64,000 nucleotides of DNA from a candidate division FCPU426 bacterium (GTDB lineage: Bacteria; Oederibacteriota; PGYV01; Palsa-1178): the NCBI GenBank assembly GCA_963840035.1, contig CAWIXE010000001.1, positions 512,001 to 576,000 of the forward strand, in the 5' to 3' direction. Positions 33,067 through 54,250 of the stretch are shown here, piece after piece (the first letter of the stretch is position 1; each line of letters begins with the position of its first letter). The notes beneath the pieces are model-generated. The model searched no databases. It was given only the letters and a program-made list of their open reading frames with translations, and was not told the DNA's origin. Both the position numbers and the translations under genes were made by a program.

Positions 33067-33939
33067 GGGCGATTCGTGAATCGCCCCTACAAGGGCGTCC
33101 TGTTGTTGTTGGTGTTTGGGTAATTCGTGAATTGTCACACAAATATGTTCTGCTGTTGTCATTGTAGGGGCGATTCACGAATCGCCCAAACCAAGGCCTT
33201 AAATCAGCATATGAGGGATGTTGATGACTTACAACCCAAAAATCCACCACAGGCGTTCCATACGAATAAAGGATTATGATTATTCCTCAGGGCATGCCTA
33301 TTACATCACAATCTGCACGCAGGACAGGTTATGCGTTTTAGGAGATGTTAAGGACGGGATAATAGAACTAAACTCAAACGGAAGAACCGTTAAAGACACA
33401 CTTAAAAACCTGCCAAGCCGGTATCCCGGGTCAAGTCTTGAATCCTACGTCATCATGCCAAACCACGTCCATTTTATAATACAGCTGCGTGGGGCGATTC
33501 GTGAATCGCCCCTACAAGGGATGAATGCAAGACGGCAGATGACTTTGCCTAAGACAATAGGATTTTTAAAAATGAATACAGCAAAAGCTATTAACAAAAT
33601 GCGTGGTACTTCTGGCGGGAAAGTCTGGCAGAAGGATTATTTTGAGCATATTATACGGAACGAAAAATCATATGGTGAGATTACGGAGTATATTTATAAC
33701 AATCCGTATTTATGGCATGAGGATGAGTACAATCCTAACAAGCCGGTAAAGCCGTTGGGCGATTCGTGAATCGCCCCTACAGGGGCAGACAAAGCGTGTT
33801 GTGGGTGATTTGTATACCGTTTGGGCGATTCGTGAATCGCCCCTACAAGGGCAGACAAACCGTGTTAGTGGGTGATTTGCATACCGTAGTTTTAGTTGTT
33901 GTATAAATCGAATTTGTAGGGGCGATTCACGAATCGCCC
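33067..33939. repeat. Cluster of REPs GTAGGGGCGATTCACGAATCGCCC around and inside the RAYT gene
   Basis: Copies at 33067-33090, 33164-33187, 33492-33515, 33757-33780, 33823-33846, 33916-33939, in both orientations. Confidence 0.92.
33224..33769 (+). mobile_element. REP-associated tyrosine (Y1/HUH) transposase, RAYT
   Basis: HHRRSIR, YYITICT, VIMPNHVH (HUH), WQKDYFEHIIR, YIYNNP; flanked by REPs. Confidence 0.92.
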
Positions 33940-34004
33940 AAGGCGGGTAATTCAGCATAAAACCATGTTTTTAATCGACAATTGACAATCGTCAATCCCC
34001 AATC

Positions 34005-35269: not shown

Positions 35270-35330
35270 GACCGCACAATTTGTAGGATTCGTTCTACAA
35301 GAATTTTTTAATCTAGTGGAGGTTTTAGTT

Positions 35331-35531
35331 ATGCCGAAGGGAAAAGTGAAATGGTTTAATGACAAGAAAGGTTATGGCTTCATCGAACAGGAAGGCGGAA
35401 AAGACGTGTTTGTGCACTACGCAGCAATCCAGGGCGACGGCTTCAAGACCTTAAAAGAAGGCCAGGAAGTTACTTTTGACGTCACAGAAGGCGCAAAGGG
35501 ACCGCAGGCTGCTAACGTAGTATCAGCATAA
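35331..35531 (+). CDS. cspA: Cold-shock protein
   Basis: [37 protein letters not shown]. Confidence 0.96.
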
Positions 35532-37705: not shown

Positions 37706-39115
37706 ATGAAATTTGGCAGCAAGAAAAGCGTGCTCATTTTGTGCGGAATATTCGTAACACTTCTTGCCGTAAGTTTTACCAGGATAAACAGCAGTTATAT
37801 TTTCCTGGCAGCGGGCCTGGCCGCCTCGCTCATTTCCTTTAACGGAGGGTGGGTTAACGGGGTTTTCATGTCGCTGCTTTTTAATTTTACTTTTTACTCG
37901 CTCCACACCGCTATGGGCGTCCAGAGCATGGTTTTAAATATAGCGGTTTTTTCAGCTCTTTCTGTGCTTGCGGACAGGCTTAAGATAGGAAGCAATGCTC
38001 CGGTTCAGAAGGATTCAAATCCCGAGGAAAAAGCTTTTGTAAACAAAGTAATAAATTCGTTCATGCTTGGCCATGACATGGTACGCGAGATAAAAAAAGG
38101 GATAACAAGGAGCGAACTGCTCGCTCTATTCGCGCGCAATGTATCAAACTTGACAGGCGCCGACCAGGTGCTGGTTTATACCGGTGAAAACGCCCCGGAA
38201 GGAAAGTTAAAGCTCACGCTCTCCGCGGGAAAATACCAGGAGAGGGTCATAGAGCCTGAAGCTGAAATTGAGAGTGTACTCTGTTTGTCGGAGAAAAACC
38301 TTCCCGCAAATGAAGCCGGATTCATAAAGAGCGTCAGCGACGGGTACGCCATCATAATGCCGGTCAATGAAAAGGGAAAAGCCGGGGACATCGCTGTGCT
38401 TTACAAGGGAAATGAGTTCTCATACAGCGACATATACATAGCCGAATTTTTCAGCGCGCAGATATTTGTCATAATGGAAAAGCAGGAACTCCTTAAAAAG
38501 ATGTCGGGAAATTACGAGCGCATCATAGAAGCCCTCGCCCTGGCCATAGATACCAAGGACCACGAGACGCACGGCCACTCGCTGGCCACCATGAAGTACG
38601 CCGTAAAAATCGCGGAAAAAATGAACCTGCCTGATGAGGAAAGGGAAATGATAAAATACGCCTCCCTCCTGCATGACATAGGAAAGATAAACATAAGCAG
38701 CGCCATACTTAACAAGCCCGACAAGCTTACGGCTGAGGAATTTGACATCATAAAAAAGCACCCGGAAGAGGGCGTGCACATTTTGGACAGGATGGACATA
38801 TTCGGGGAGATACTCCCGCTTGTTATGCACCATCACGAGCATTTTGACGGCAAAGGCTACCCAAAGAAGCTAAAGGGGGACAGCATCCCGCTGGGGTCCA
38901 GAATTTGCTCGATTGCGGACGCGTACTCGGTGATGGTGGCGGACCGCCCCTACAGGAAAGCGCGCACAAGGGATGAGGCCATTAATGAGCTGAAACGCTG
39001 CTCCGGGACGCAGTTTGACAGGCAGATAGTGGATGTCTTCCTCGGGATAATAAAGGAAGAAAACACGCAGGAAGCGGCATTACATAATATTACCGGCGCA
39101 GGGCCGGTAAACTGA
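37706..39115 (+). CDS. Membrane-bound HD-GYP phosphodiesterase with GAF-like region
   Basis: KDHETHGHS, LLHDIGK, HHEHFDGKGYP, DRPYR. Confidence 0.92.
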   Translation: MKFGSKKSVLILCGIFVTLLAVSFTRINSSYIFLAAGLAASLISFNGGWVNGVFMSLLFNFTFYSLHTAMGVQSMVLNIAVFSALSVLADRLKIGSNAPVQKDSNPEEKAFVNKVINSFMLGHDMVREIKKGITRSELLALFARNVSNLTGADQVLVYTGENAPEGKLKLTLSAGKYQERVIEPEAEIESVLCLSEKNLPANEAGFIKSVSDGYAIIMPVNEKGKAGDIAVLYKGNEFSYSDIYIAEFFSAQIFVIMEKQELLKKMSGNYERIIEALALAIDTKDHETHGHSLATMKYAVKIAEKMNLPDEEREMIKYASLLHDIGKINISSAILNKPDKLTAEEFDIIKKHPEEGVHILDRMDIFGEILPLVMHHHEHFDGKGYPKKLKGDSIPLGSRICSIADAYSVMVADRPYRKARTRDEAINELKRCSGTQFDRQIVDVFLGIIKEENTQEAALHNITGAGPVN

Positions 39116-39918
39116 TGGATGAGTTAACCGCGTTTAATAATATTAAGGCGCTGATATTGAAGGAAAAATTCCTAGATGTCACGCAGTACAAGGAAAATTA
39201 CCTGAAACGAAGGCTGGCGGTGCGGATGAGGGCGCTTAACGCCCACACGTACACCGACTACCTCGCGGTGATGGAAAAAAACAAGAACGAACTGAACATA
39301 CTTTTGGATAAGCTGACGATAAACGTAACGCAGTTCTTCAGGGACCCAGAAGTCTTCGTGGAACTTGAGAATGTCATACTGCCGGAACTTTTAGCCGGCG
39401 GAAAGACCGACTTAAGGGTGTGGAGCGCCGGATGTTCCTCAGGCGAGGAGCCTTACTCGATTGCCATTTCCATAGAGGAGACAGCGGAGCGGCTCGGTTT
39501 GAAAAACCTGAGATATGAGATTTATGCCACGGACTTAGACGATGAAATACTGCGCAGGGCCCTTGAAGGCAAGTACGAAGGCAGGACCCTGGACAACATA
39601 GCGGAGTCACGTAAGAGAAAATATTTTGATTTTGACGGAAAAAAATATTCCGTTACGCAGAGGATACGCAAAAACATCCTGTTTTTTAAGCATAACCTGA
39701 TGGAACCGTACAAAAAGGATTTTTTTAACCTGGTTTTCTGCAGGAATGTCATCATTTATTTTACGAGGGAACTGCAAAAAACGGTGTTACAGCACTATTA
39801 TGATTCCATGAAGGAGGGCGCGGTACTGTACCTGGGAAAGACCGAGACCATGCTCATGGAACACAGGAATAATTTTGAATGTATAAATATTAAGGAAAGG
39901 ATATTCAGGAAAATATAA
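39115..39918 (+). CDS. cheR: Chemoreceptor methyltransferase CheR
   Basis: TINVTQFFRD, RVWSAGCSSGEEPYS, CRNVIIYF. Confidence 0.97.
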   Translation: MDELTAFNNIKALILKEKFLDVTQYKENYLKRRLAVRMRALNAHTYTDYLAVMEKNKNELNILLDKLTINVTQFFRDPEVFVELENVILPELLAGGKTDLRVWSAGCSSGEEPYSIAISIEETAERLGLKNLRYEIYATDLDDEILRRALEGKYEGRTLDNIAESRKRKYFDFDGKKYSVTQRIRKNILFFKHNLMEPYKKDFFNLVFCRNVIIYFTRELQKTVLQHYYDSMKEGAVLYLGKTETMLMEHRNNFECINIKERIFRKI

Positions 39919-41084
39919 TGGACACAGTACAGGACCACATAAATCTCGGGCTGGCCTTTGCCATGAGCAAGCGCTATGACCAGGCCATAAAAGAATTTGA
40001 AAAGGCCCTCAGCATAAACGCTGACGACGCAGAGGTACTAAAGCACCTGGCTAACGCCTACGTTTATAAAGGCGAATATGACCAGGCCATAAACTCATAT
40101 GAAAAAGCCCTCAAGATCAATCCCATGAACGCCGAGGTAATAATGAAACTCGGAAAATTATACGCGAACATGGCCAATTTTGACAAGGCTCTGGTGCAGT
40201 ATAAAAAAGGGCTTGAGATCAACTCTACAGACTCAGCCTTAAGGCACGCGCTGGCAGACCTGTACGTGAAGATGGGAAAAAACGCCGAGGCCGAGGCCGA
40301 GTACAGGAAGATGATAGAAAAGGAACCGGCTAATATGGAGCTTATTTTCAAGCTCGGCTATATATTTGAATCCGAGAAAAAATACGCCGAAGCAGCGGTG
40401 GAATACGAGAAAGTCGTAAAGGCAAACCCTAAAAGCCCCGGCATTAATTCCATGCTTGGAAATGTTTACAGGGAATTAAAGCAGTTTGACAAGGCCATAG
40501 AGCATTATGACAAGGCCGTTAAGATAAATCCCAGGGATACCGCTGTGGCTTTTAACCTGGGGGTCCTGTATTTTGAAAGCGGGCAGAACGAAAAGGCCAT
40601 AACGCAGCTGGAGATAGCCAAGAAAAACAAGTTTAAAAATTCGGAAATATTCATAATCCTTGGGGAAGTGTACTCCAGGCTCGGCAGAAAAAAAGAAGCG
40701 CTTGAGGAATATAAAAAGGTAGCCGAGCTCGGGAGCGCGGACGCGGAAACGCATAAAGCCCTCGGGTTCATATACATGGAAGAGGACCAGCTCGACGACG
40801 CCCTCGCCGAATACAAAAAGGCCATGGAAACAAAATCAGACGACCCCGCGATATATGAGAATATGGGGCAGATATACTATAAAAAAATAATGTATAAGGA
40901 AGCGAAGGAATATTTCTCAAAGGCCATAGAGGCCGGCAGGGAAAGCGCGGACATGTTCTACAAGCTGGGGAACATATATATGAAGGAATCCAACCCGGAA
41001 AAGGCCAAGGAAAACTGGAACAAGTCGCTTAAGATATACCCGGAGAACGAGATAATAAAAAAGAATCTGAAACTGCTCGGCTGA
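39918..41084 (+). CDS. TPR-repeat protein
   Basis: Regular 34-aa LG...A...Y.KA..INP units along the whole length. Confidence 0.93.
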   Translation: MDTVQDHINLGLAFAMSKRYDQAIKEFEKALSINADDAEVLKHLANAYVYKGEYDQAINSYEKALKINPMNAEVIMKLGKLYANMANFDKALVQYKKGLEINSTDSALRHALADLYVKMGKNAEAEAEYRKMIEKEPANMELIFKLGYIFESEKKYAEAAVEYEKVVKANPKSPGINSMLGNVYRELKQFDKAIEHYDKAVKINPRDTAVAFNLGVLYFESGQNEKAITQLEIAKKNKFKNSEIFIILGEVYSRLGRKKEALEEYKKVAELGSADAETHKALGFIYMEEDQLDDALAEYKKAMETKSDDPAIYENMGQIYYKKIMYKEAKEYFSKAIEAGRESADMFYKLGNIYMKESNPEKAKENWNKSLKIYPENEIIKKNLKLLG

Positions 41085-41120
41085 GTTTAAAGTCAGGTTT
41101 TAAATTGCAGGGGGAAATGA

Positions 41121-41720
41121 ATGGAACTTTATAAAAAACAGGACAAGAGTTTGGGCGAACTCCTAATACAGGCGGGATTTATAACAAACGAGCAGCTGAA
41201 AGAATGCCTGCTGGAACAGCACTCGACAGGCGAGCCCCTGGGGAAAATCCTCATATCAAAGCATTATGTCAGGGAAGAGAACATCATAAACGTCTTAAAG
41301 GGTATGCTCGTGGTGGTGGTCGAGGTTAATAATGAAAAATTCGGAATAGAGATCATATACGCCAGGGAAATTATAAAATACAAAAAAATATCCGCCCTTC
41401 CGAACCTGCCGGACTACATCCTGGGCATGATGTCGCTTCGGGAGGATGTCATCCCGGTAGTCAGCCTTAATAAGAAAATTTTCAACAGGGAAGACGCCAT
41501 AACAGAAAACTCAAAGATAATAATTATAGACGGCAAAAAGGACCTGATGGGTGTTTTAGTGGATGAAGTCATAAACGTAAAGAATTACCAGTCGTCGGAT
41601 TTTGCCAATATCACAAAATACACCTTTACCATAGACAGAAAATACATCGCCGGGCTGATAAAGGACGGCGACGGGGTAATAACCCTAATAAAGCCGGAAA
41701 TCCTTTTTGAAGGCAGGTAA
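41121..41720 (+). CDS. cheW: CheW with N-terminal MshEN-like domain
   Basis: SLGELLIQAGFITNEQLKECLLEQ-HSTGE-PLGKIL, then ALPNLPDYILGMMSLREDVIPVVSL and GVLVDEV. Confidence 0.85.
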   Translation: MELYKKQDKSLGELLIQAGFITNEQLKECLLEQHSTGEPLGKILISKHYVREENIINVLKGMLVVVVEVNNEKFGIEIIYAREIIKYKKISALPNLPDYILGMMSLREDVIPVVSLNKKIFNREDAITENSKIIIIDGKKDLMGVLVDEVINVKNYQSSDFANITKYTFTIDRKYIAGLIKDGDGVITLIKPEILFEGR

Positions 41721-41722
41721 GC

Positions 41723-43927
41723 ATGGAAAAACCGGACAAAACGCCTTCAAAGGAATCAAAGTCTGAAAATGACGCCATAGAGCTTAATAATGTGGGCGTA
41801 TATTATTATTCCAAGGGAATGTATCAGGAAGCCATCGAGCAGTTCAAAAAAGCGCTGACTATAAACCCGTCATACGGACAGGCGCAGGGAAATTTAAAAG
41901 CAGTCAATAAGCAGACCGGCATTTACGACAGGGCAATATCCGCGTACAGGAAGGCGGTACAGCTTTATCCTTCGGACCCTGAGGCGAACTTCAACCTTGG
42001 AAAGTCGCTGTGCTACACGGGCGATTATGAAAGCGCGGTAAAGTCGTTAAAGAGGGCGCTCGAGCTCAACCCCGAGCACTTAATGGCGCAGAACCTTCTG
42101 GGAGTAATTTACAAGAATATGGGGGATTACGACCTGGCTGAAAAAGTTTTCAGGGAAGCCATGAAAAAATTCCCGAATTACGCGGAGTTAAGGAACAACC
42201 TTGGCGAGACGCTTTATAAAAAAGGGGCCTATGACGAGGCGGAAGAACAGCTGAAAAAGGCCATCCAGCTTAACAAGGAATACGCGCTGGCATACTATAA
42301 CATAAGTTTTGTTTACGGCGAAACAGGCAAGGACGAGGACGCGGGCATATGCTATAACCGCGCGGTGGAACTTAACCCCTCATTCATCAAATCAAACAAA
42401 TCCCTGGTCATCGACTATTACGAGTCAAACGCCGCCTCAAACTTAAAACGCGGCGAGGAAGTCGAAAAGATGGACGACGGAAAAAGGAAGGAAGAAGCCT
42501 ACTTCAACCTCGCGAAGGTGTATAAGCTCAAAGGCTACACTGATGACGCCATCACCCAGATAAAATCGGCCATTACTTTCAATTCCAAACAGCCCCAGTA
42601 CTATAACTTTTTCGGAGAGCTGCTCATAAAAAAAGGAATACTCAAGGAAGCCATTGAAATTTTCAAGCAGACCATAAAGTTAAAACCCGACATGGTGGAG
42701 GCAAAAGTAAATATTGCCGTAGCTTACAGGGAAATGAAGGAATTTGAAAAGGCCAGGGCGGTTCTTGACGCCATACAGGAGGAAAACCCGGAGTATACCA
42801 GGGTGGAACTCGAGCGCGGAATAATCCTTTATAAGGAAGAGCGCATAGAGGAAGCCATCACCCTTCTTTTAAAGCACCTTGAGACCGAGCCTTATGATGA
42901 CGAGGCAAGGTATTTCCTGGGGGTCTCATACTACAAACTGAAAAAATATGACGAGGCCGTGACCGAACTGCGCAAAGCCCTCGAGCTGCTCCCGAATTAC
43001 ATAAAGAAACCGGACATAAACCTCTACCTCGGCCTGGTCTTAACCGACAAGGGCAGGAATGAGGAGGCCATAATAGAGTACCAGAAGGCCATAGCTGTCC
43101 AGCCAAATAACGCGGTCGCGCATAATTCAATGGGCGTGGCCTTTAAAAACATGGGGAATGTGGACCGCGCCATAGAGGAATATCAAAAGGCTGTGGAAAT
43201 AGATAAGGAGTATTACAAGGCATATAACAACCTCGGGGTAGCATATTATAAGAAGAACTTTTTTAAGGAAGCCCAGAAATACTTCGAGCAGGCCCTGAAA
43301 ATCAACCCGGAGTATTCTGTGGCAAAAAAGAACCTGGATGCCGCGCAGAAAAAGGACGTGGTTTTCAAGGAAACCATTGAAAAATTAAGGGAAAAACAGG
43401 CTGAGGCGCCGGTGGACAGCATAGTCGCCTACGATCTTGGCAACGCGTACAGAAATACTGGACAATTGCAGGAGGCTATTGTAGAATATAAGAAAGTGCT
43501 TGCGGCAAGCCCCGGAAATACCGAGGCATTAAACAGCGTAGGGTCTGTGTATTTTGACACAGGCGACTATGATAATGCCGTAAAAGCCTTCATAACCGTC
43601 GTATCTCAGGACCCGAAAAACGCCAAAGGGCATCTTAACCTGGCCAACGCCTATTTTAAAAAGGAATGGTGGGACGAAGCCGACATCGAGTACCATAAAG
43701 CCCTTGAAATGAACGCTGACTTCGCGGAAGTGTATTTTAAGCTCGGCGAGGTATACAGGTGGAAGGGCTGGTGGGACGAGGCCATTGATATGTGGAAAAA
43801 ATACGTGGAAAAAGCGCCCGACACGGAGATGGCAAGGCTGGCGCAGGAAAATTTAAGGATGGTGGAAGTGTGGAAAAAAGAACTCATGCTTTCTCCTTCT
43901 TCAAGCAGGAAAAAGCTCATAAAATAA
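41723..43927 (+). CDS. Large TPR-repeat protein
   Basis: Many TPR units (NNLG..YY.KG, AHNSMG, AYNNLG). Confidence 0.93.
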   Translation: MEKPDKTPSKESKSENDAIELNNVGVYYYSKGMYQEAIEQFKKALTINPSYGQAQGNLKAVNKQTGIYDRAISAYRKAVQLYPSDPEANFNLGKSLCYTGDYESAVKSLKRALELNPEHLMAQNLLGVIYKNMGDYDLAEKVFREAMKKFPNYAELRNNLGETLYKKGAYDEAEEQLKKAIQLNKEYALAYYNISFVYGETGKDEDAGICYNRAVELNPSFIKSNKSLVIDYYESNAASNLKRGEEVEKMDDGKRKEEAYFNLAKVYKLKGYTDDAITQIKSAITFNSKQPQYYNFFGELLIKKGILKEAIEIFKQTIKLKPDMVEAKVNIAVAYREMKEFEKARAVLDAIQEENPEYTRVELERGIILYKEERIEEAITLLLKHLETEPYDDEARYFLGVSYYKLKKYDEAVTELRKALELLPNYIKKPDINLYLGLVLTDKGRNEEAIIEYQKAIAVQPNNAVAHNSMGVAFKNMGNVDRAIEEYQKAVEIDKEYYKAYNNLGVAYYKKNFFKEAQKYFEQALKINPEYSVAKKNLDAAQKKDVVFKETIEKLREKQAEAPVDSIVAYDLGNAYRNTGQLQEAIVEYKKVLAASPGNTEALNSVGSVYFDTGDYDNAVKAFITVVSQDPKNAKGHLNLANAYFKKEWWDEADIEYHKALEMNADFAEVYFKLGEVYRWKGWWDEAIDMWKKYVEKAPDTEMARLAQENLRMVEVWKKELMLSPSSSRKKLIK

Positions 43928-43946
43928 CAGGGGACCGGCAAATAAA

Positions 43947-44285
43947 ATGAAAAAAGTAACAGTCATAGTTCAGCCGGTAAAATTTGAAGCCATAAAAAAA
44001 GAACTCGTGGAAATGGGAGTCAACGGGATCACCATATCGGACTGCGAAGGCTATGGCTTTCAGAAAAGGAAAATTGACGTGCTTGAGGGCAAGGATGTAT
44101 CGGTGGAGTTCCTTCCCAAGGTAAAAATAGAAATAGTGCTGAAAGACGACGAAGTGGAAAAAATTATTGAAAAAATAATAGAAATAACCAGAACCGGAAG
44201 GATAGGCGACGGAAAGATATTCATAACCGATGTCGCGGAGGTCATAAGGATAAGGACCGGCGAGCGCGGGGAATACGCGGTTTAG
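43947..44285 (+). CDS. glnB: P-II family signal transduction protein with divergent T-loop
   Basis: 112 aa; FLPKVKIEIV, TGRIGDGKIF, IRIRTGE. Confidence 0.9.
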   Translation: MKKVTVIVQPVKFEAIKKELVEMGVNGITISDCEGYGFQKRKIDVLEGKDVSVEFLPKVKIEIVLKDDEVEKIIEKIIEITRTGRIGDGKIFITDVAEVIRIRTGERGEYAV

Positions 44286-44292
44286 AAAAAAG

Positions 44293-44385
44293 AAGTCTCA
44301 GTAGACTCAGCAGTCTCAGTGATCTCAATAGATTTAGAACTGACTTTTGAGACCATTGAGACTACTGAGATTGTTGAGACTAAAT
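44293..44385. repeat. Inverted pair of 9-mer arrays
   Basis: agtctcagt agactcagc agtctcagt gatctcaat ... tgagaccat tgagactac tgagattgt tgagact. Confidence 0.75.
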
Positions 44386-44412
44386 AAATAAAAAATTAAA
44401 AGGAGAACTACA

Positions 44413-44778
44413 ATGGCAAAAAGGATCTTAATAGCTGACGACGCGGCGTTTATGAGGATGATGCTTAAAAACATCCTGACAGCCGGAGGATATGACGTGG
44501 TGGGGGAGGCCGGAAACGGCCGCGAAGCCATAGCGAAATATAAAGAACTTAAGCCGGACATGCTGATTTCCGACATGGTTATGCCGGAGATGGGCGGCAT
44601 TGACGTCTTAAAAAATGTGATAGCTGAATTCCCGGCCGCGAATGTTTTAATATGCAGCGCCATAGGCCAGCAGGCGCTGGTCATAGAGGCTATACAGGCG
44701 GGAGCCAAGGATTACATCGTAAAACCTTTTGAACAGTCAAACGTGCTTGAGACCGTAGCAAAAATACTGGGAGCATAA
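44413..44778 (+). CDS. cheY: CheY response regulator
   Basis: LIADDAAFMR, SDMVMPEMGG, SAIGQQ, IVKPF. Confidence 0.95.
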   Translation: MAKRILIADDAAFMRMMLKNILTAGGYDVVGEAGNGREAIAKYKELKPDMLISDMVMPEMGGIDVLKNVIAEFPAANVLICSAIGQQALVIEAIQAGAKDYIVKPFEQSNVLETVAKILGA

Positions 44779-44779
44779 G

Positions 44780-45403
44780 ATGGCGGAAAATAAATTAAGC
44801 GAATTCCAGCGGGACGCCCTTAAAGAACTTGGCAATATAGGCGCGGGAAGCGCGGCCACGGCGTTATCGCAGCTGCTTGGAAAAGACATTAACATAGACG
44901 TACCTTCCATTACCATGGTCCCCATAGAAAAGATGGCTGAGATGGCTGCGCAGGATACAAAGATAGTGGCGGCCGTGTACATGAGGATATACGGCGAAAT
45001 ACAGGCAAGGGCGCTGCTTTTATTCCCGCAGGACAAGGTATTTTTCATGCTTGATTTGCTGATGAAAAGAAAACTCGGGCAGACCACGGAATTCGGCGAG
45101 ACCGAACAGTCAGCCCTTAAAGAAATAGGGAACATCCTTATATCCGCGTACTTAAACGCCATAGCCAAATTCATAGGGTTAAATTCCGTGCCGTCGGTGC
45201 CGGCGCTTGCCGTGGACATGACAGACGCGATATTTGAGACCATATCCGCCGAACTTGCGGAAGTGGGCCCGGAAGCCATGCTCATAGAAAATGAGATGAT
45301 GGAATCAGTGACCAACTTAAAGACAAAGTTATTCATAATACCTGATAAGGCGGCAATGGCAAAGATCCTTGAGGCCCTGAATAATACAATACAGGGCGCC
45401 TGA
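44780..45403 (+). CDS. cheC: CheC phosphatase
   Basis: DALKELGNIGAGSAATALSQL and SALKEIGNIL. Confidence 0.95.
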   Translation: MAENKLSEFQRDALKELGNIGAGSAATALSQLLGKDINIDVPSITMVPIEKMAEMAAQDTKIVAAVYMRIYGEIQARALLLFPQDKVFFMLDLLMKRKLGQTTEFGETEQSALKEIGNILISAYLNAIAKFIGLNSVPSVPALAVDMTDAIFETISAELAEVGPEAMLIENEMMESVTNLKTKLFIIPDKAAMAKILEALNNTIQGA

Positions 45404-45408
45404 GATAA

Positions 45409-45888
45409 ATGGCCGGCGAGATCATAAAAGTAAACATGGGTGAGCTTAAAATCGGCCGGCAGGAGGACATACTTGCCGCGTACGGAGTGGGCTCATGCAT
45501 CATCGTGGCCTGCTATCAGAGGAACAACATGACGGCCGGCATGCTGCACGGGATTTTGCCCGAGAAACCCGGCACAAAGGGAACTAACGACAACAAGTAC
45601 TTAAACACCGGCATAGAGAACCTGGTAAAGGCCATGATGAAAGAGGGACTGTCGATAAACGGCCTTGAAGCCAAGATTTTCGGCGGGGCAAAGATGTTTG
45701 ACATGACCAGCGATACGGCGGCCATAGGCGAGCGCAATATAAAGATGGCAAAGATGATGCTCGATAAAAAGGGCATTAAGATAGCGGCGGAAGACACGGG
45801 CAGCAATTACGGCAGGACCATAGAATTCAGGGTAAATGACAAGTCGGCAACTATAAGGAGTTTTCAGAAAGGCACCATAATAATTTAA
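45409..45888 (+). CDS. cheD: Chemoreceptor glutamine deamidase CheD
   Basis: [37 protein letters not shown]. Confidence 0.95.
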
Positions 45889-45901
45889 ACGGCGGTTAAC
45901 A

Positions 45902-47164
45902 ATGGCGGGAAAACACGACGACTGGTTGAGAAAGATAGTAATGATAAACGCAGGGGCCGGAATCGGGTCGGCCCTTATATTCGGATTATTATGCGCGCTG
46001 CTGCATATAAAAACGGACAGTGTGATATTTTTTGTCCTGTTACTTATACTTGCCGGGGTTTTAATGGCCGTTAATTCCATAGCGGGGATGAAGATAGGCG
46101 CTGATAAATTTGACAAGCTCGCGGTAAAATTTGAAAAAATAGCGTCAGGAGACCTCACGGATGAAGTCAAAATAAAGGGCGGTTTTGTAAAGTCCATAAC
46201 AATGAGCGTCAATAAAATGATAGACGACCTCCGGAACATGCTCGGAAAACTCGACGATTCCACGGGCGTCATTATGAACCTGGCCGAGAATTTATCGGCT
46301 TCCACGCAGGAGATAAACGCCTCCGCGGAGGAAATATCCTCCACGGTCCAGCAGATAGCGCGCGGCGTGGAGCAGCAGGCGGAGAGGACAGTGGAGACTT
46401 CCCGCATCATGGAAAACATGTCGAACTCCATACAGGAAGTGGCGCAGAAGTCAGAAGAAGTGCTCGGCGTGGCAAAATCAGCCAAGGACGCCTCGGAGCA
46501 CGGCATACATTCCGTGGACGAGACCGTAAAAAAGATGGAAGAGATAGTCATAGTGACAAAGAAAGCCAAGGAATCCATAGAGGAACTGAAAGTTTATTCC
46601 GAAAAAATCGAGGAAGTCGTCAACATAATAACTGATATAGCGGACCAGACCAACCTTCTGGCTTTAAACGCCGCCATTGAGGCTGCGCGCGCCGGCGAGG
46701 CGGGTAGGGGATTTGCGGTTGTCGCCGACGAAGTAAGGAAGCTCGCGGAAGGCTCGGCAGGAGCCGCGAAGGAAATCACGCGCCTAGTGGAGGACATACA
46801 CGAGAAGACTGAGAATGTCGTAAAGGACATAGTCGTCGGCGTGAAGGAAACTGAAGAGGGAAAACAGGTTGCCAAGCAGAGCGGGGACGCCCTGCGCAAG
46901 ATAGACGACATAGTAAGCAGGGTTGTATCGCTTTCAAACGAGATTACAAGCCTCTCAAAAGCGCAGGCAGAGGACACGGACAGGGTGGTAAAAGCAGTCG
47001 AGGAAATAGCGGCCGTAGCCGAGGAAACAGCTGCAGGAACGCAGCAGGCATCGGCCTCCACGCAGCAGCAGACGGCATCCATGGAAGAAATCGCGGCGCA
47101 GGCGCAGGAGCTGGCCCAGACCGCGGAAGTATTAAAAGGCATGATGTCAAAGTTCAGGAGATAA
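45902..47164 (+). CDS. Methyl-accepting chemotaxis protein lacking a periplasmic sensor domain
   Basis: Two adjacent TMs, [42 protein letters not shown]. Confidence 0.96.
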
Positions 47165-47167
47165 AAA

Positions 47168-47662
47168 TTGGAAAATAAGATTGTAGGGTTTAAGCTTAGG
47201 GATGATGAATTCGCCTTCGATATCATGAAGGTTGTGGAAATCATCAGGCTTAAAAACCAGATAACCGAGGTGCCCACGGCGCCAAAGTTCATAGAAGGGG
47301 TCATAAACTTAAGGGGCAAGATCATCCCCATCATAGACCTGCGCAAGCGTTTTAATATGGAGGATAAGGAAGCCACCAAGCAGGCCAGGATAATAATCAC
47401 GGAATTCCTGAAAAACCAGCTCGTCGGGGTGGTGGTGGACGAAGTTACCAAAGTCTTAAACGTCAGGCCTGAGGAAGCGCTTCCGGCGCCGCCGTCTGTT
47501 ACAGGCGTGGGAGGAAGGTACATACAGTCGCTGGTTAAGACAGGCGAAAAAATAATAGTCCTGCTCGACATAGAAAAAATCTTCACCGAACAGGAGCAGG
47601 AAGACATAAAGGAATTGCTACAATCCGAAGGAGGCAAAATTGAAGAAAGTTCTAATCGTTGA
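47168..47662 (+). CDS. cheW: CheW
   Basis: VPTAPKFIEGVINLRGKIIPIIDLR, GVVVDEV. Confidence 0.96.
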   Translation: MENKIVGFKLRDDEFAFDIMKVVEIIRLKNQITEVPTAPKFIEGVINLRGKIIPIIDLRKRFNMEDKEATKQARIIITEFLKNQLVGVVVDEVTKVLNVRPEEALPAPPSVTGVGGRYIQSLVKTGEKIIVLLDIEKIFTEQEQEDIKELLQSEGGKIEESSNR

Positions 47663-48002
47663 TGATACCAAATTCATGAGGAACATCCTGGCCTCCATAC
47701 TTAAGAAAAAAGACCTGGAGGTCGTGGGAGAAGCCGTGAACGGCAGGGAAGCCATAGAGAAGTATAAGGAATTAAGGCCGGACCTTGTCACTATGGACAT
47801 AATAATGCCCGAGATTGACGGCATACAGGCAGTGAAGGAAATAATGAAGATAGACCCGGCGGCAAAGATACTTATGTGCAGCGCCATGGGACAGCAGGCT
47901 CTGGTAATAGAAGCCATACAGGCGGGCGCCAAGGATTTTGTGATCAAACCTTTCCAGCCGACAAGGGTTTTGGAAGCAGTCGACAGAACGTTCCAGGAGT
48001 AA
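47640..48002 (+). CDS. cheY: CheY response regulator
   Basis: LIVDDTKFMR, TMDIIMPEIDG, SAMGQQ, KPF; TTG start after GGAGG. Confidence 0.95.
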   Translation: MKKVLIVDDTKFMRNILASILKKKDLEVVGEAVNGREAIEKYKELRPDLVTMDIIMPEIDGIQAVKEIMKIDPAAKILMCSAMGQQALVIEAIQAGAKDFVIKPFQPTRVLEAVDRTFQE

Positions 48003-48008
48003 ACCATA

Positions 48009-49073
48009 ATGGGAAAGATCAGGGTCCTTGTAGTGGATGACTCGGCCTTCATGAGGAAAATAATTCCGGACATGTTAAATGAAGACAGCTCCATAGAGGT
48101 CATAGCCACGGCAAAAGACGGCAAGGACGCTTTTAAAAAGGTTATGGAATTAAAGCCGGATGTTGTCACCCTTGACGTTGAAATGCCCGGCATGGACGGG
48201 TTACAGACGCTCGGATACATCATGAGCGAACAGCCCACCCCGGTAATCATGCTCTCCGCGTACACCCCCCAGGGAGCCGAGACCACTATCAAATCATTGC
48301 AGTACGGCGCCGTGGATTTTGTGTGCAAGCCTTCCGGAGAGATATCACTCGACATAAAAAAAGTGCAGGCCGAGCTTGTGGAAAAAATAAAGGCCGCGAA
48401 AAACATAGACACATCCACCGTTAAATTCCTCCTTCCTGACAACTCGGAGCCGGCAAAAAAAGAAAAAATAACAGCCCGCAAGAATGAACTGCTCGTCATC
48501 ATAGCCGCCTCAACCGGCGGGCCCAGGGCCCTGACAGAAGTGGTCCCAAACATACCGCGCGACCTTCCGGCGGCATTTCTCATCATACAGCACATGTCCG
48601 AAGGCTTTACAAAGACGCTGGCGGAGCGCTTAAACTCGCTTTCCATGATACAGATAAAGGAAGCCGAGCACGGCGAAGTGATCAAAGCCGGAAACGCCTA
48701 CCTGGCCCCGGGCGATTATCACATGGAAATTTCCAAAAGCGGCGACGAATACTGCATAGACTTAAACCAGAAACCATCCAGGCTCGGAGTGAGGCCATGC
48801 GCTGACATGACTTTTTTCTCGGCGGCTAAAGTTTTTGGCGGAAAAATAATCGGGGTTGTTTTAACGGGAATGGGCAAGGACGGCACTGCCGGAGCTGAAA
48901 TGATAAGGCAGAAAAACGCGAGAATCATAGCGCAGGATAAGGAAACAAGCGTCATATACGGCATGCCCAAGTCAGTGGCTGAAAAAGGGTATGTGGACAG
49001 GGTGCTGCCGATTACATCGATTGCCGCGGCCATTACTGACGAGATAAAAAGGGCATTAGAGGAAGTCAAATAA
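48009..49073 (+). CDS. cheB: CheB methylesterase (REC plus catalytic domain)
   Basis: VVDDSAFMR, ASTGGP, IQHM, LTGMGKDG. Confidence 0.97.
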   Translation: MGKIRVLVVDDSAFMRKIIPDMLNEDSSIEVIATAKDGKDAFKKVMELKPDVVTLDVEMPGMDGLQTLGYIMSEQPTPVIMLSAYTPQGAETTIKSLQYGAVDFVCKPSGEISLDIKKVQAELVEKIKAAKNIDTSTVKFLLPDNSEPAKKEKITARKNELLVIIAASTGGPRALTEVVPNIPRDLPAAFLIIQHMSEGFTKTLAERLNSLSMIQIKEAEHGEVIKAGNAYLAPGDYHMEISKSGDEYCIDLNQKPSRLGVRPCADMTFFSAAKVFGGKIIGVVLTGMGKDGTAGAEMIRQKNARIIAQDKETSVIYGMPKSVAEKGYVDRVLPITSIAAAITDEIKRALEEVK

Positions 49074-49224
49074 TATCGTAGAGACGCCACCGGTGGGCGT
49101 CTCAGGGCTGGAGCTAGTCGGGAACGGGTCCCGTCTCTACGAAGACATTAAGAAGGATAGAAACGCCGGTAGCCGCAGCCTTTAGGCTGCGAAACGATGT
49201 GTGAAGTATGGAGGAAGTAAATAA

Positions 49225-51267
49225 ATGAACACAGAAGATTATAAAGAAGCGTTTTTAGAGGAAGCCGCTGAGAATGTAAACATTCTCAACAAAGCCTTGC
49301 TTGCCTTTGAAAAAAACATAGATGACTTAACGCCGTTAAACGAACTTTTCCGCGCGGCGCATACCTTAAAAGGCATGTCAGCCACCATGGGCTACGATAA
49401 GATGGCGGAATTCACCCACATGCTCGAAGAAGTCATGGATAAGATACGCGGGGGAATGCTCGCGCCCGGCCTCGACGTGGTGAACCTGCTTTTTAAGTCC
49501 ATAGATATAATGCAGGAATTTGTGGAAAACATTAAAACAAAAAACGTGGATTTTGCCGATGGCTACCGGGAAACCATAGACCGTATAAAGCAGATAAAGG
49601 GAACCTCGTCCGAAGAAATAAAAACCGCCCCGGCAAAACCGCAGCCGGCCCCGGCCATTCCCGGCGCCCGCGCCCTGGCAGGCGTGTCCATAGACCTTGA
49701 AATAGAAGCAATGGCCCTTGAAGAAGCGGCAAAGCAGTCCATGAAGGTTTTTAAAATACGCGTGGCCGTGGCAAGGTCTTGCGCCTTTAAAAATGTGCGC
49801 TCATTTATGGTATTCAGGAACCTCTCCGAAAAAGGGGAAATAATAAAAGCAAACCCGAAAGCCAAGGACATAGAAGAGGGTAATTTTGATTACGCGTTCA
49901 CCCTGGGGTATGTGACAAGCTTATCAGCTGATGAGGTGAACAAGCTCATCTCCAGGATCGCCGAGATTGACAGCGTCGAAGTCGAGGAAATAAAGCTTCC
50001 GGAAAATCCGGCCGGGGCCCCGGCATCGGCGCAGGAAGACAGGGATGAAAAACAGGAACACGCAGATGAAAAAAAAGAAAAAGCGCCGAAGGACAAAAAA
50101 GGCCCGCTTTCACAGAGCGTGAGGGTGAATATAGAAAAACTTGACTCCATGATGAACTTAGTCGGGGAGCTTGTGATAAACAAGATAAGGCTCGACCAGA
50201 TAACCAAGAGCAAATCATTCGGGGAGTTATCGCCCACGGTCGCTGAATTTGACAGGATCATAGACGCGCTGCAGATAGAAGTAACGGATGTCCGCATGCT
50301 TCCCGTGTCGCACATATTCGACAGGTACCCGAGGGTCATCAGGGATTTAGCCGCGGACGCAGGCAAACAGATAGAAGTGGAAATAATCGGAGGAGACATT
50401 GAAATAGACAGGACAGTGCTTGAGGAGATAAACGAGCCTGTCATGCACTTAATCAGGAATTCCGTGGCGCACGGCATAGAGATACCTGACAAGAGGGAAA
50501 TGGCGGGAAAGAACAGAAAAGGCGTGATAAGGATGTCCGCGCGCAGGGAACGCAACTCAGTTATCATAGAAGTATCGGACGACGGCGCAGGGGTTAACGT
50601 GGAAAAGGTCAGAAAAAAAGCGGTGGAAAAGGGCATAATGCCTGCGGATAAAATAGAGAGTTTGTCTGAAGAAGAAGCGGTAAATCTAATAACCCTCCCG
50701 GGTTTTTCCACGGTAGATAAGGTTAATACGGTATCAGGAAGGGGCGTCGGCGTCGACGTTGTAAAAACAAAAGTCGAGGCGTTCGGCGGTATCTTTAAGA
50801 TAGAAAACCATCCCGGCGAGGGAATGAAGTCGATTCTAAAACTGCCGCTTACGCTGGCAATCATACAGGCGCTTTTAGTCAAGGCGGGCGGCGGAATATA
50901 CGCCATACCGGTCATACATACCATAGAAACAGTGGAACTCCCGATAACCGAGATAAAAGTCATTCAGGACCGCAGGGTGCTGGTGCTGCGGGATGAAGTT
51001 GTGCCTGTGCTCTCGCTGGCTGAGCTTATAGGCAAGCCCAGGGACGTGCATGATGTGGTGCACATGGTCATCATAGAGTCGCGTGAAAAGAAGATAGCCA
51101 TGGAAGTGGAGGCTGTAATCGGCCAGCAGGAAATAGCCATCAAAAGCCTCGGTGAATTTTTAAAGTACGCAAAGGGTTTTTCCGGAGTGACAATACTTGG
51201 CGACGGGTCGATAAGCCTTATAGTGGACGTGCAGTCGCTCATTGAGGCGAATATAAAGCTGGTGTAA
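49225..51267 (+). CDS. cheA: Chemotaxis histidine kinase CheA
   Basis: FRAAHTLKG, P2 domain, MNLVGELVI, HLIRNSVAHG, SGRGVGVDVV, LPLTLAI, C-terminal CheW domain. Confidence 0.98.
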   Translation: MNTEDYKEAFLEEAAENVNILNKALLAFEKNIDDLTPLNELFRAAHTLKGMSATMGYDKMAEFTHMLEEVMDKIRGGMLAPGLDVVNLLFKSIDIMQEFVENIKTKNVDFADGYRETIDRIKQIKGTSSEEIKTAPAKPQPAPAIPGARALAGVSIDLEIEAMALEEAAKQSMKVFKIRVAVARSCAFKNVRSFMVFRNLSEKGEIIKANPKAKDIEEGNFDYAFTLGYVTSLSADEVNKLISRIAEIDSVEVEEIKLPENPAGAPASAQEDRDEKQEHADEKKEKAPKDKKGPLSQSVRVNIEKLDSMMNLVGELVINKIRLDQITKSKSFGELSPTVAEFDRIIDALQIEVTDVRMLPVSHIFDRYPRVIRDLAADAGKQIEVEIIGGDIEIDRTVLEEINEPVMHLIRNSVAHGIEIPDKREMAGKNRKGVIRMSARRERNSVIIEVSDDGAGVNVEKVRKKAVEKGIMPADKIESLSEEEAVNLITLPGFSTVDKVNTVSGRGVGVDVVKTKVEAFGGIFKIENHPGEGMKSILKLPLTLAIIQALLVKAGGGIYAIPVIHTIETVELPITEIKVIQDRRVLVLRDEVVPVLSLAELIGKPRDVHDVVHMVIIESREKKIAMEVEAVIGQQEIAIKSLGEFLKYAKGFSGVTILGDGSISLIVDVQSLIEANIKLV

Positions 51268-51334
51268 TACAATTTTATATTTGAAATTTTCAATTTTAAA
51301 TTAATTGCAAGAAAGACGAAATAAGGAGAATACA

Positions 51335-51958
51335 ATGGCGGACGGAAGTTTACAGAATCTTTCGGACATACAGACAGACGCGTTAAAAGAGGTCGGGAAC
51401 ATAGGCGCGGGGCACGCTGCCACGGCGCTTTCCCAGCTTATAAAGAAAAAAATAATGATATCAGTGCCGACGGTAAAAGTCATCAAGTCGCAGGACATAG
51501 AGACACTTCTGGGCGACCCGAACACGCTGGTGGCCGGCATCATTATGAATGTATTGGGCGATATAACCGCGAAAATCCTTCTTCTTTTAACCAGGGAATC
51601 GGCCCTTTCGCTTGTGGATATGCTACTGCAGAAACCCGTCGGGTCCACAAAAGTATTATCCGAGGTGGGAAACTCCGCCATAAAGGAAACAGGAAACATC
51701 CTAGCCGGGGCATACATGAATTCTTTGAACGAGTTTCTGGGGCTCATGCTTTTGCCGTCGGTCCCGAATCTCGTATTTGATATCTCAAGCGCGATACTTT
51801 CATCGCTCTCTGACGGTTTTGACGGGATGTCACAGCACATCCTTTCCATAGAAACGCAGTTTTCGGAAGCAAATGAAAAGGTCATTAAAGGTTATTTACT
51901 CCTGATACCGGACGAGCCTTCGGTGAAGGTGTTGTTGCAGTCGATAAAGGTTGGGTAA
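51335..51958 (+). CDS. cheC: CheC phosphatase (second copy)
   Basis: DALKEVGNIGAGHAATALSQL and SAIKETGNIL; RBS AAGGAG. Confidence 0.95.
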   Translation: MADGSLQNLSDIQTDALKEVGNIGAGHAATALSQLIKKKIMISVPTVKVIKSQDIETLLGDPNTLVAGIIMNVLGDITAKILLLLTRESALSLVDMLLQKPVGSTKVLSEVGNSAIKETGNILAGAYMNSLNEFLGLMLLPSVPNLVFDISSAILSSLSDGFDGMSQHILSIETQFSEANEKVIKGYLLLIPDEPSVKVLLQSIKVG

Positions 51959-51968
51959 GCAGTAAACC

Positions 51969-52050
51969 GTGCGGGATGGATCGTGCGGGGTGCGGGATGG
52001 ATCGTGCGGGGTGCGGGATGGATCGTGCGGGGTGCGGGATAAGGCGTGCG
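51969..52050. repeat. 21-bp tandem repeat made of heptamers
   Basis: (gtgcggg atggatc gtgcggg) x3, then gtgcggg ataaggc gtgcg. Confidence 0.9.
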
Positions 52051-52126
52051 TAATTTAAAATACGCACGGACGGCGCACTGCGGGCGCACGAATTTTCAGG
52101 CACGTATCACGTTATAGGGAGAAATA

Positions 52127-54250
52127 ATGGCCGTTTTCGCTTTAGACATAGGAACCCGCAAGGTAGCCGGCATATTAGGCGAGCTTCGCGGAGAGAGAGT
52201 GCACATCATAGATGCCGTTTTAATGGAGCATGAAAAACGCGCCATGATAGACGGGCAGATACACTCCATAGAGGGCGTCACAGACATTGTGCGCAAAATA
52301 AAGAACGAGCTTGAAATGCGCAACGGCATTATAATTGAAAAGGTCACAACAGCGCTCGCGGGCAGGAGCCTTCATACGGAAAAGACGGATGTTATCATAG
52401 AAAAAAAGGGCGATGTCACGAAGGAAGACCTGGCTTACCTGGAGATGTTAAGCGTAAAGCAGGCAAATGAAAAGCTGACCGGCCAGAAAAAACTTGATTA
52501 TTACTGCGTGGGTTATTCCACGGTTTCATTCTCCGTCGACGGCGAGGTAATGAAGTCCCCGCTGCAGCAGCTGGCAAAAAGGTCGCTTGGCATTTCCACC
52601 ATAGTTACATTCCTTCCCAAACCGGTATTTGACTCCATGGTCACGGTCTTAAACAACTGCGGCCTGGTCATAGACGCGATAACGCTTGAGCCAATAGCGG
52701 CGTTATCAGTCACAATCCCGGAGGACATGAGGCTTTTAAACCTCGCGCTTGTGGACGTGGGCGCGGGAACATCGGACATCGCGATAACTGACAAGGGTAA
52801 AATAACAGCGTATGGCATGATACCAAAAGCAGGGGACGAGATAACTGAAGCGATCTGCCATGAATTCCTGGTGGATTTTAACACGGCGGAAAAAGTAAAG
52901 AGGAAAGCTGAAAGCCCGGAAGAAGCCGGGGCTAAAGACATATTTAATAACCCTGTGATTGTTACCGCGGAAAAATTCCGCGAGGCGGTATTTGCAAAGA
53001 CAGAAGAAGTGGCCAAAGATGTTGCAGACGGAATTTTAATGTTAAACGGAAAACAGCCGCAGGCGGTTGTCATGGTAGGCGGCGGAAGTTCGCTTATGCT
53101 TTTACGCGAGCGCGTGGCCGCGAATTTAAGCCTGCCGGTGGGCAGGGTCGGCGCGAGGACCCCGGAGACCATTACAAACATAGAAAACCTGCCTGACGTG
53201 TTAAAGGGCACTGAAGGAATAACCCCCCTTGGCATACTCGAGACCGCGCTTTTCAAAAGGGGCATAGGATTTGTGGATGTCACTGTAAACGGCGAAAAAG
53301 AATACGTCATAAACCTCGACCAGGAGATAAAAGTCGTGGACGTGCTGGCGTCGCGCGGCATGGAAATGAAGAGGCTTTACGGAAAACCCGGAAACTCGCT
53401 TACCTTTACATTTAACGGAGAGCTTAAGATACTGCGCGGGAGCCACGGCGAACACGCGAAAATATATGTCAACAACGACGAGAGACAGCTTGAAGACAGG
53501 GTATATAAAGGCGACGCCATATTCATAACGTCGGCAAAAGACGGCGCTTCAGCCTCGGCCATAATAAGGGACATCATAGGCGAACACTACGTCACAGTAG
53601 TTGAGATAAACGGCAAGAAACACGAGATAGCGCCGCTGGTCCTGCGCGAAGGCAGGGAAGTCACAATAGACGAGCCTTTAACGGACAGGGCGGATATTAC
53701 AGCGGAGAGGATAGACATGGCCGCGGACGTGCTTGCAAGGGCCGGCTATGAGATAAAGGCGTCGAACGAGCGCGACATCATAATAACAGTCAACGGCGAA
53801 CCGCAGGTTTTAAAGCAGAGGAACTACCAGCTGAAGGTAAACGGCGTAGAAGTCGCGGCCGATTATAAGCTGCGCAACATGGACAGGGTGGAATACAAGG
53901 ACACGCCGGCGTATTACAGGGTAAAAGACGTGCTGAAAACCTCGCGCAAGCACAAGATAAGCGTCATCATAAACGGCAAGCCTTTTGAGATGGAACAGGA
54001 AAATTCCGGAATATTCATGAACGGAAAGAAAGTCTCGGAGGACGAGTTCCTCATTAACGGCGCCTCCATAGACATAAAATCAAACGAAGAAAAAATGATA
54101 CTATCCTCGGTATTTAAGTTCTACCCCATAGACACGCAGAGAATCAAAGGAAGGCTCCTGGAGCTGAAGGTTAACGGCGAAAAAGCCGGCTACACCACCC
54201 AGATAACCGAAGGCGCAAACATAGAAATAAACTTCACAGACGCGGTATAA
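52127..54250 (+). CDS. FtsA/PilM-like actin-fold ATPase with C-terminal beta-grasp (ThiS/ubiquitin-like) repeats
   Basis: ALDIGTRKV, LEPIAA, LVDVGAGTSD, VGGGS; C-terminal half has recurring (V/I)NG motifs ending LKVNGEKAGYTTQITEGANIEI. Confidence 0.8.
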   Translation: MAVFALDIGTRKVAGILGELRGERVHIIDAVLMEHEKRAMIDGQIHSIEGVTDIVRKIKNELEMRNGIIIEKVTTALAGRSLHTEKTDVIIEKKGDVTKEDLAYLEMLSVKQANEKLTGQKKLDYYCVGYSTVSFSVDGEVMKSPLQQLAKRSLGISTIVTFLPKPVFDSMVTVLNNCGLVIDAITLEPIAALSVTIPEDMRLLNLALVDVGAGTSDIAITDKGKITAYGMIPKAGDEITEAICHEFLVDFNTAEKVKRKAESPEEAGAKDIFNNPVIVTAEKFREAVFAKTEEVAKDVADGILMLNGKQPQAVVMVGGGSSLMLLRERVAANLSLPVGRVGARTPETITNIENLPDVLKGTEGITPLGILETALFKRGIGFVDVTVNGEKEYVINLDQEIKVVDVLASRGMEMKRLYGKPGNSLTFTFNGELKILRGSHGEHAKIYVNNDERQLEDRVYKGDAIFITSAKDGASASAIIRDIIGEHYVTVVEINGKKHEIAPLVLREGREVTIDEPLTDRADITAERIDMAADVLARAGYEIKASNERDIIITVNGEPQVLKQRNYQLKVNGVEVAADYKLRNMDRVEYKDTPAYYRVKDVLKTSRKHKISVIINGKPFEMEQENSGIFMNGKKVSEDEFLINGASIDIKSNEEKMILSSVFKFYPIDTQRIKGRLLELKVNGEKAGYTTQITEGANIEINFTDAV

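Follow-up and report, generated by a model that had tools for sequence, protein, structure and literature searches.

The locus described here raises the question of what a P-II protein could be doing in the middle of a chemotaxis operon. P-II proteins are the most widespread sensors of metabolic status, and act, as far as is known, on transporters, enzymes and regulators of transcription. To our knowledge, coupling between metabolic state and taxis is known only in a few special cases, such as energy-taxis receptors and links to the phosphotransferase system. In the window, i.e. the whole stretch of 64,000 nt analyzed, a gene of the P-II family stands among che genes, and an earlier note made from the letters of this stretch had taken the product for a dedicated, non-uridylylated P-II with a rewired T-loop.

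The P-II gene and the surrounding che cluster

The product of the gene is a P-II protein as judged by its sequence and predicted fold. PF00543 matches it at 94.5 bits (cut-off 25, E 5.6e-27), with residues 1-106 aligned to profile positions 1-102 of 102, i.e. over the full length of the domain. The alignment to solved P-II proteins is gapless over residues 1-111 or 1-112; the closest of them, at 42-50% identity and with E-values from 1e-33 to 1e-28, include Aquifex 2eg1 (E 1.5e-33), E. coli PII 1pil (E 3.2e-30) and E. coli GlnK 1gnk (E 7.9e-29), and the length of 112 aa and the colinearity with E. coli GlnB given in the earlier note were thus confirmed. An AlphaFold2 model built from 19 orthologues (pLDDT 84.5) contains the P-II double b-a-b fold with the T-loop between b2 and b3, the modelled order b-a-b-(T-loop)-b-a-b being E2-8, H10-22, E29-35, loop, E56-65, H67-81 and E90-95. 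In a Foldseek search of the PDB, the top 50 matches were all P-II chains (E ~1e-10, TM ~0.7). Scores against the NCBIfam equivalogs fell below the cut-offs (112 vs 202 for NF008111 and 109.5 vs 181 for NF007946), and on these comparisons the protein is a member of the P-II family outside the GlnB/GlnK equivalogs.

In the alignment to solved structures, the window's protein keeps Q39, K40, K58, T83-G84-R85-x-G87-D88-G89-K90, R101 and R103; the earlier note had listed Q39, K58, the B-loop, R101 and R103 as retained, and rightly so. The residues for nucleotide phosphates (B-loop G84-x-x-G87-D88-G89-K90, R101 and R103), whose roles are taken from the available portions of PMC7919409 and PMC8395244, are intact. 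By analogy with other P-IIs, the protein would form a homotrimer with ATP or ADP in the inter-subunit clefts.

Table 1. Features of the P-II gene and of the che cluster, with positions counted from the first letter of the window
Feature	Positions	Strand	Evidence
HD-GYP-type HD protein (HD_5, E 2e-38), at the cluster head	37706..39115	+	Pfam
CheR methyltransferase	39115..39918	+	Pfam
TPR1, TPR protein of 388 aa; start overlaps the CheR stop	39918..41084	+	Pfam
CheWa, CheW domain (64-196) with 63-aa N-terminal extension	41121..41720	+	Pfam
TPR2, all-TPR protein of 734 aa, proposed partner of P-II	41723..43927	+	Pfam, synteny
Che-linked P-II protein, 112 aa and stop	43947..44285	+	Open reading frame without internal stops, Pfam, solved structures, model
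Diverged T-loop of the P-II protein, codons 36-55 (YGFQKRKIDVLEGKDVSVEF)	44052..44111	+	Alignments to solved P-IIs, the genome's own GlnKs and the clade
Long hairpin in the 127-nt spacer between P-II and CheY1	44294..44381	+	Folding
CheY1, single-domain response regulator directly 3' of P-II	44413..44778	+	Pfam
CheC	44780..45403	+	Pfam
CheD	45409..45888	+	Pfam
MCP (MCPsignal domain)	45902..47164	+	Pfam
CheWb	47168..47662	+	Pfam
CheY2	47640..48002	+	Pfam
CheB	48009..49073	+	Pfam
CheA, the sole one found in the genome	49225..51267	+	Pfam
Second CheC-like protein	51305..51958	+	Pfam
FtsA/PilM-like protein, 707 aa, closing the conserved cluster	52127..54250	+	Weak FtsA and PilM_2 matches (Pfam)

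The cluster spans 37706 to 54250, its genes all on the + strand and either overlapping or separated by short gaps (Table 1). Pfam matches place CheA, CheW, CheY, CheB, CheR, CheC, CheD and an MCP in this one cluster, which is of the CheC/CheD (Bacillus/Thermotoga) type. As the genome holds a single CheA, the cluster is the only chemosensory pathway found in the cell. The flagellar protein FlhA is also encoded in the genome, and the one CheA together with FlhA fits a flagellar output of the cluster, which is plausible from the gene content. The absence of amtB and of nitrogen genes next to the P-II gene was noted earlier and holds, its neighbors being TPR2 and CheY1. In a pattern scan, terminator-like sites were not enriched over shuffled sequence (31 vs a mean of 25.8), and none lay on the + strand between the cluster genes.

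Several features of the cluster deserve a separate mention. The HD-GYP gene occurs at the cluster head only in the window's own order, and its product has a long N-terminal part without a Pfam match; in one other genome (G023), an HD-GYP-like gene lies downstream of CheB. The HD-GYP protein was considered as a conserved partner of P-II and ruled out, as families f18, f19 and f22 lack it in their clusters. The overlapping stop and start of CheR and TPR1 look like a CheR-TPR fusion protein split in two (such fusions are described in the available part of PMC3447774). The extension of CheWa (41121-41310, + strand) contains two helix-like repeats of the type LGxxLIxxGxIxxxQL. It was considered as a c-di-GMP site of the MshEN/T2SSE_N kind and rejected, as Pfam gave no T2SSE_N match at E up to 1; a match to DUF4388 was sub-threshold (E 6.8e-4, 20.1 bits vs the cut-off of 25). 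The 707-aa FtsA/PilM-like gene stands 3' of the second CheC-like gene in most loci that reach past the latter, at identities down to 32%, and its product is no known che component.

The hairpin between P-II and CheY1 is a near-perfect structure of 88 nt built of 9-nt periodic units. Its folding energy is -41.6 kcal/mol (z -7.3), none of 200 shuffles folds as well, and no T-run follows it on the + strand. Similar structures occupy the spacer in some relatives (loci L041, L056, L060 and L063) and are absent in others; the hairpin was therefore dropped as a candidate conserved element, being strong in the window and some other loci only. It could act in processing or stabilization, setting the upstream and downstream halves of the operon apart.

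Outside the cluster, the region 33218-35200 (+ strand), upstream, contains a fragment of an IS200-like Y1 transposase (PF01797, E 7.6e-7) and a 363-aa transposase-like protein with an HTH_38 domain. These genes are followed by a gene for a cold-shock protein (approximately 35330-35531). The gene at 55574-55951 (+ strand) encodes a protein with a PIN domain (PF01850, E 5.9e-10) that may be the toxin of a VapBC-type pair.

T-loop, ligand residues and the nitrogen P-IIs of the genome

The earlier note had singled out four substitutions, K9Q, R38F, G41R and Y51V, and all of them are present. Position 9 is Q in the window's protein and K in the four printed structures, position 38 is F where the printed structures have R or Q, and positions 41 and 51 are R and V vs G and Y in solved P-IIs. 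Further departures are L46 (Y), E47 (R), K42 (H) and E34 (K). Hence the canonical base of the T-loop, R/Q38-Q39-K40-G41, and its apex, Y46-R47...Y51, are absent, and the window's protein has F38-Q39-K40-R41, L46-E47 and V51 at these places. Among the best 150 representatives from 1.84 billion proteins, with 156 aligned domains, R38 is found in 143 domains and G41 in 151, so F38 and R41 are not chance variation.

The same positions were surveyed in 36 che-linked P-IIs, 35 of which are complete. Position 38 is F in 12, I in 9, Y in 8, V in 5 and L in 2 of them, and R in none; G41 is found in 3 of the 36, and K or R at position 9 in none. Position 39 is Q in 20, H in 9 and E in 4, position 58 is K in 15, R in 18 and Q in 3, and Y51 is retained in 13 proteins. 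D88, G89, K90, R101 and R103 are present in all 35 complete sequences.

The ordinary nitrogen P-IIs of the genome (3.46 Mb, 98.3% complete) lie elsewhere. The genome yielded three P-II matches, and the other two each follow an amtB on another contig, forming two amtB-glnK pairs 4 kb apart (genome G000, contig C2, approximately 691-698 kb, loci L001 and L003); a glutamate dehydrogenase gene adjoins one of the pairs. Both amtB-linked GlnKs have the usual R38-Q39-K40-G41, Y46-R47 and K58. They also have Q9 and E51 in place of K9 and Y51, so neither Q9 nor the absence of Y51 is peculiar to the che copy. Judged by these alignments, F38 and R41 alone of the four substitutions mark the che-linked clade, while K9Q and Y51V do not distinguish it. 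The term rewired T-loop is nevertheless justified in that the loop is of a clade-defining type, set against the R38 and G41 counts elsewhere. No match to the GlnD domain (PF08335) was found in this 98.3%-complete genome, and therefore no P-II of the genome is likely to be uridylylated. The description of the che-linked protein as non-uridylylated is thus correct, given V51 and the missing GlnD match, and it applies to every P-II of the genome rather than to this one in particular. A separate canonical glnK-amtB had been suggested as a check, and the two pairs found show that the che-linked gene is not the ordinary nitrogen P-II of the genome. The best explanation of the gene is a P-II paralogue dedicated to the chemotaxis pathway, and not a nitrogen regulator.

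The ligands of such a protein can be judged from residues of known function. In the window's P-II, the 2-oxoglutarate set is kept in part, with Q39 and K58 retained and Q9 and R41 changed. An excerpt of PMC6908673 names K58 and Q39 as the main 2-oxoglutarate ligands and reports that K58N abolishes its binding. In Methanococcales GlnK, as described in the accessible portion of PMC8395244, the Q39 and G41 backbone holds the keto group of 2-oxoglutarate, R9 and K58 hold its carboxylate, Q39 bridges the Mg ion, and Ile38 contacts ATP via its main chain, ATP and 2-oxoglutarate still being bound. Nucleotide binding can thus go together with a hydrophobic residue at position 38. In GlnZ, according to the part of PMC7919409 available, the side chain of R38 contacts the gamma-phosphate; this residue is always hydrophobic in the che-linked P-IIs, which counts against the explanation favored here. 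Since the 2-oxoglutarate residues vary across the che-linked clade, sensing of this compound cannot be its common function; in the window's P-II, with Q39 and K58 alongside Q9 and R41, it is possible.

Distribution, linkage and losses across the phylum

The earlier note had called for a P-II phylogeny and for a comparison of neighborhoods. A maximum-likelihood tree (112 columns, midpoint root only, one row cut by a contig end left out) was built with 20 canonical P-IIs picked from approximately 90 listed and the genome's two GlnKs. A branch with support 94/99, recovered in 94% of bootstrap trees, separates the 35 che-linked P-IIs from all of these other copies. In this comparison the che-linked P-IIs are one clade with a T-loop type of its own, the root of the tree not being established. 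The dN/dS ratio was 0.015-0.113 in eight of the ten close pairs of che-linked P-IIs compared, the two remaining pairs being saturated, and by this measure the gene is under purifying selection. It is a real, conserved and strongly constrained feature, and the function proposed for it below is plausible.

The family is small and, within the reach of these searches, restricted to this lineage. Among 5.8 billion protein clusters, approximately 27 with the same T-loop type were found at 55-91% identity, below which lies a plateau of ordinary P-IIs at approximately 50-55%. A profile of 30 che-linked P-IIs run against 1.84 billion representatives recovered the T-loop type in three of the best 150 matches, these three being the top-scoring single-domain matches among them. 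A single-protein search in other lineages gave six loci, one of them a close relative and the other five at 31-43% identity. A search with TPR2 in 185,579 species genomes gave 41 loci. Full-length matches at 39-80% identity account for 28 of them and are labelled Goldbacteria/Goldiibacteriota or unclassified MAGs, some of them Spirochaetia or proteobacterium; the other 13 reach 22-36% identity in the best segment and are read as generic TPR proteins. Given these labels, no TPR2-PII pair was found outside this lineage with TPR2 as the query in those 185,579 genomes.

The phylum comprises 99 species genomes, the window's own included. A TPR2 orthologue (E up to 1e-40) was found in 62 of the 99, again counting the window's own. 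In all 61 other genomes with TPR2, the P-II gene stands directly downstream of it on the same strand, as established by tblastn on fetched stretches in 20 and 12 cases and by coordinates in 29; TPR2 without P-II was found in none of the 62. The stop of TPR2 overlaps the start of P-II (-4 or -1) in 13 of 20 loci measured, and in the other seven the gap is 1-19 nt, the window's being 19 nt. The gap from P-II to CheY was positive in every one of the 20 loci (20-171 nt), and CheY1 follows P-II directly in all P-II loci examined. The order CheR-TPR1-CheWa-TPR2-PII-CheY1-CheC-CheD-(MCP)-CheWb-CheY2-CheB-(CheA) is kept from 80% down to 37% TPR2 identity, also in families with their MCP and CheA genes elsewhere; in families f16 and f17, CheA is far from the cluster, and TPR2, P-II and CheY are still together. 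With three further genomes in which P-II is part of the che cluster without TPR2, the orthologues are che-linked, so that the neighborhoods answer the question asked of them: P-II is a fixed member of a conserved che cluster, the sole chemotaxis operon.

The exceptions are informative as to the partner of P-II. CheA was found in 73 of the 99 genomes, 13 of them without TPR2, of which 11 were examined (G013 and G035 were left out). In G094, a 97%-complete genome of the window's family, the cluster is whole, except that CheWa is followed after 145 nt by CheY1, with TPR2 and P-II gone. In G086 and G087, which belong to another family, the CheR-TPR1-CheWa locus ends at that point and the genes from CheY1 onward form a second locus behind dnaX-ybaB-recR-like genes (named by eye from their N-termini); TPR2 and P-II are again missing. 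These cases are suggestive of at least two joint losses of TPR2 and P-II, in a set of few events among related genomes that are no independent replicates. In G034, G036 and G037, the order is CheR-TPR1-CheWa-PII-CheY without TPR2, and the T-loop is shorter by 2-4 residues; on the branch closest to theirs in the tree, that of G039, TPR2 is shortened (31% identity) and the T-loop lacks one residue. This is suggestive of a P-II that can outlive TPR2 and of a T-loop that then decays, again from few events among related genomes. As P-II without TPR2 occurs in one lineage of three genomes, TPR2 cannot be its sole partner, and a second contact of P-II in the cluster is probable. The remaining genomes have other, smaller che clusters without P-II (G014, G017, G018 and G044) or a contig that ends inside the che cluster (G025).

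Possible role and comparison with known systems

From the conserved residues and gene order, we consider it on balance probable that the che-linked protein is a dedicated P-II that senses adenylates, possibly also 2-oxoglutarate, and acts through its T-loop on a protein of the cluster, most likely TPR2. In the proposed mechanism, the P-II trimer would bind ATP or ADP in its inter-subunit clefts; in the window's order, in which Q39 and K58 are retained, Mg-ATP-2-oxoglutarate may be a further ligand. T-loop conformation would depend on the ligand bound, and the loop would then bind or release a cluster protein, TPR2 being the most likely candidate. The TPR2 scaffold, placed beside CheR/TPR1 and CheWa, would in turn change the methylation of receptors or their coupling to CheA. 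The outcome would be a receptor-independent input of energy or carbon state into flagellar taxis. As TPR2 sits with CheR/TPR1 and CheWa, i.e. with methylation and receptor coupling, the output is likely a change in adaptation or in kinase coupling. The whole chain, with P-II/TPR2 as a receptor-independent input to the array through which adenylate status (in some lineages 2-oxoglutarate status) would pass via the T-loop and the TPR scaffold to CheR methylation or CheW/CheA coupling and finally to swimming bias, is put forward as a tentative proposal. A prediction of the 1:1 complex of TPR2 and P-II from 19-row alignments, run without controls, gave 0.08 and 0.01 vs a mark of 0.32 and speaks neither for nor against binding.

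Three other explanations were weighed. P-II may act directly on a signalling enzyme of the pathway, likeliest CheA, as GlnB does on NtrB, or else CheY1 or CheC/CheD, TPR2 being an independent scaffold that shares the operon. The retention of P-II between CheWa and CheY in the three genomes without TPR2 agrees with such an arrangement, as does CheY1, which always comes next after P-II, and the control of a histidine kinase by P-II is established for GlnB-NtrB (PMC6978683, in the part available). We nevertheless regard direct action as unlikely: none of the 62 genomes with TPR2 lacks P-II, both genes disappeared jointly on two occasions, 13 of 20 loci show an overlap of their reading frames, and in f16 and f17 it is CheA that is far off, while TPR2, P-II and CheY stay together.

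It is less likely still that the P-II fold senses some other small molecule, e.g. a cyclic nucleotide, as in SbtB and c-di-AMP receptors of the P-II-like type, and reports it to the pathway, perhaps together with the c-di-GMP gene of the cluster. The T-loop's base and the 2-oxoglutarate ligands are indeed changed or variable, the cluster begins with an HD-GYP gene in the window's order, GlnZ of A. brasilense binds c-di-GMP enzymes and affects aerotaxis (available portion of PMC7646526), and SbtB binds several adenine nucleotides (excerpt of PMC9974498). Against this, the residues with which ATP/ADP-binding P-IIs typically hold phosphate do not vary, and the P-II-carrying clusters of f18, f19 and f22 have no HD-GYP gene. 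Finally, an ordinary nitrogen P-II or redundant copy, placed in the che cluster by chance, would equally score as a P-II and have GlnB proteins as its nearest solved relatives. This explanation is extremely improbable in view of the two amtB-glnK pairs elsewhere in the genome, the position kept in all 61 other TPR2 genomes, in families at 37-80% identity, the separate clade with its specific T-loop, and scores far under the NCBIfam equivalog cut-offs.

The dedicated P-II acting on TPR2 thus appears preferable. A diverged P-II in a che operon suggests that energy or carbon state may be fed directly into swimming decisions. If the proposal is true, chemosensory arrays join the list of P-II targets and a new route of metabolism-dependent taxis is added; a P-II hard-wired into chemotaxis would be a general and simple way of coupling metabolism to taxis. 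The proposal can be tested in vitro, as a stretch of 16 kb encodes every candidate partner; the lineage (Goldbacteria-type) is uncultured, and the feature is limited to a single small phylum.

Among known systems, the window's P-II resembles canonical GlnB/GlnK proteins (1pil, 1gnk, 2eg1, S. elongatus PII 2xul and A. brasilense GlnZ 3mhy) in its length of 112 aa, its colinearity and its predicted fold. It differs from them by a hydrophobic residue 38 and the lack of G41 and Y46-R47, and also by its place in a che operon, with no amtB, glnA or nif gene as a neighbor. As in GlnB-NtrB, contact with a P-II protein could determine how active a two-component pathway is; here, however, the pathway is chemotaxis and the kinase CheA, the cluster has no NtrB- or NtrC-like gene, and contact with the kinase is hypothetical. 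Similar to GlnK with AmtB, the window's P-II would be a target-dedicated paralogue encoded beside its putative target. Further P-II-like proteins are tied by gene order to one target, such as SbtB with SbtA and NifI1/NifI2 with nitrogenase. The likeness to these is that loss of the target gene goes along with loss of the P-II gene; they act, however, on a transporter or an enzyme, whereas here the putative target, a TPR scaffold, is soluble and belongs to a signalling pathway.

TPR modules on the methylation branch are known from FrzF-type CheR-TPR fusions (PMC3447774 and PMC2535941, in their available parts), to which CheR-TPR1 is similar. Unlike in those fusions, the TPR proteins here are encoded by separate genes, and a second, larger one is coupled to P-II. 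Full-text searches, limited to papers readable without subscription, turned up none that describes a P-II encoded in a chemotaxis operon; the available portions of two papers on chemotaxis and nitrogen in A. brasilense (PMC8561660 and PMC6978683) mention P-II only in the references or in the context of NtrB. The nearest precedent is GlnZ of A. brasilense, which also ties a P-II to motility, via c-di-GMP enzymes to aerotaxis; as described in the accessible part of PMC7646526, this link is indirect and runs through a general nitrogen P-II without che-operon linkage, whereas the P-II of the window is a member of the operon itself.
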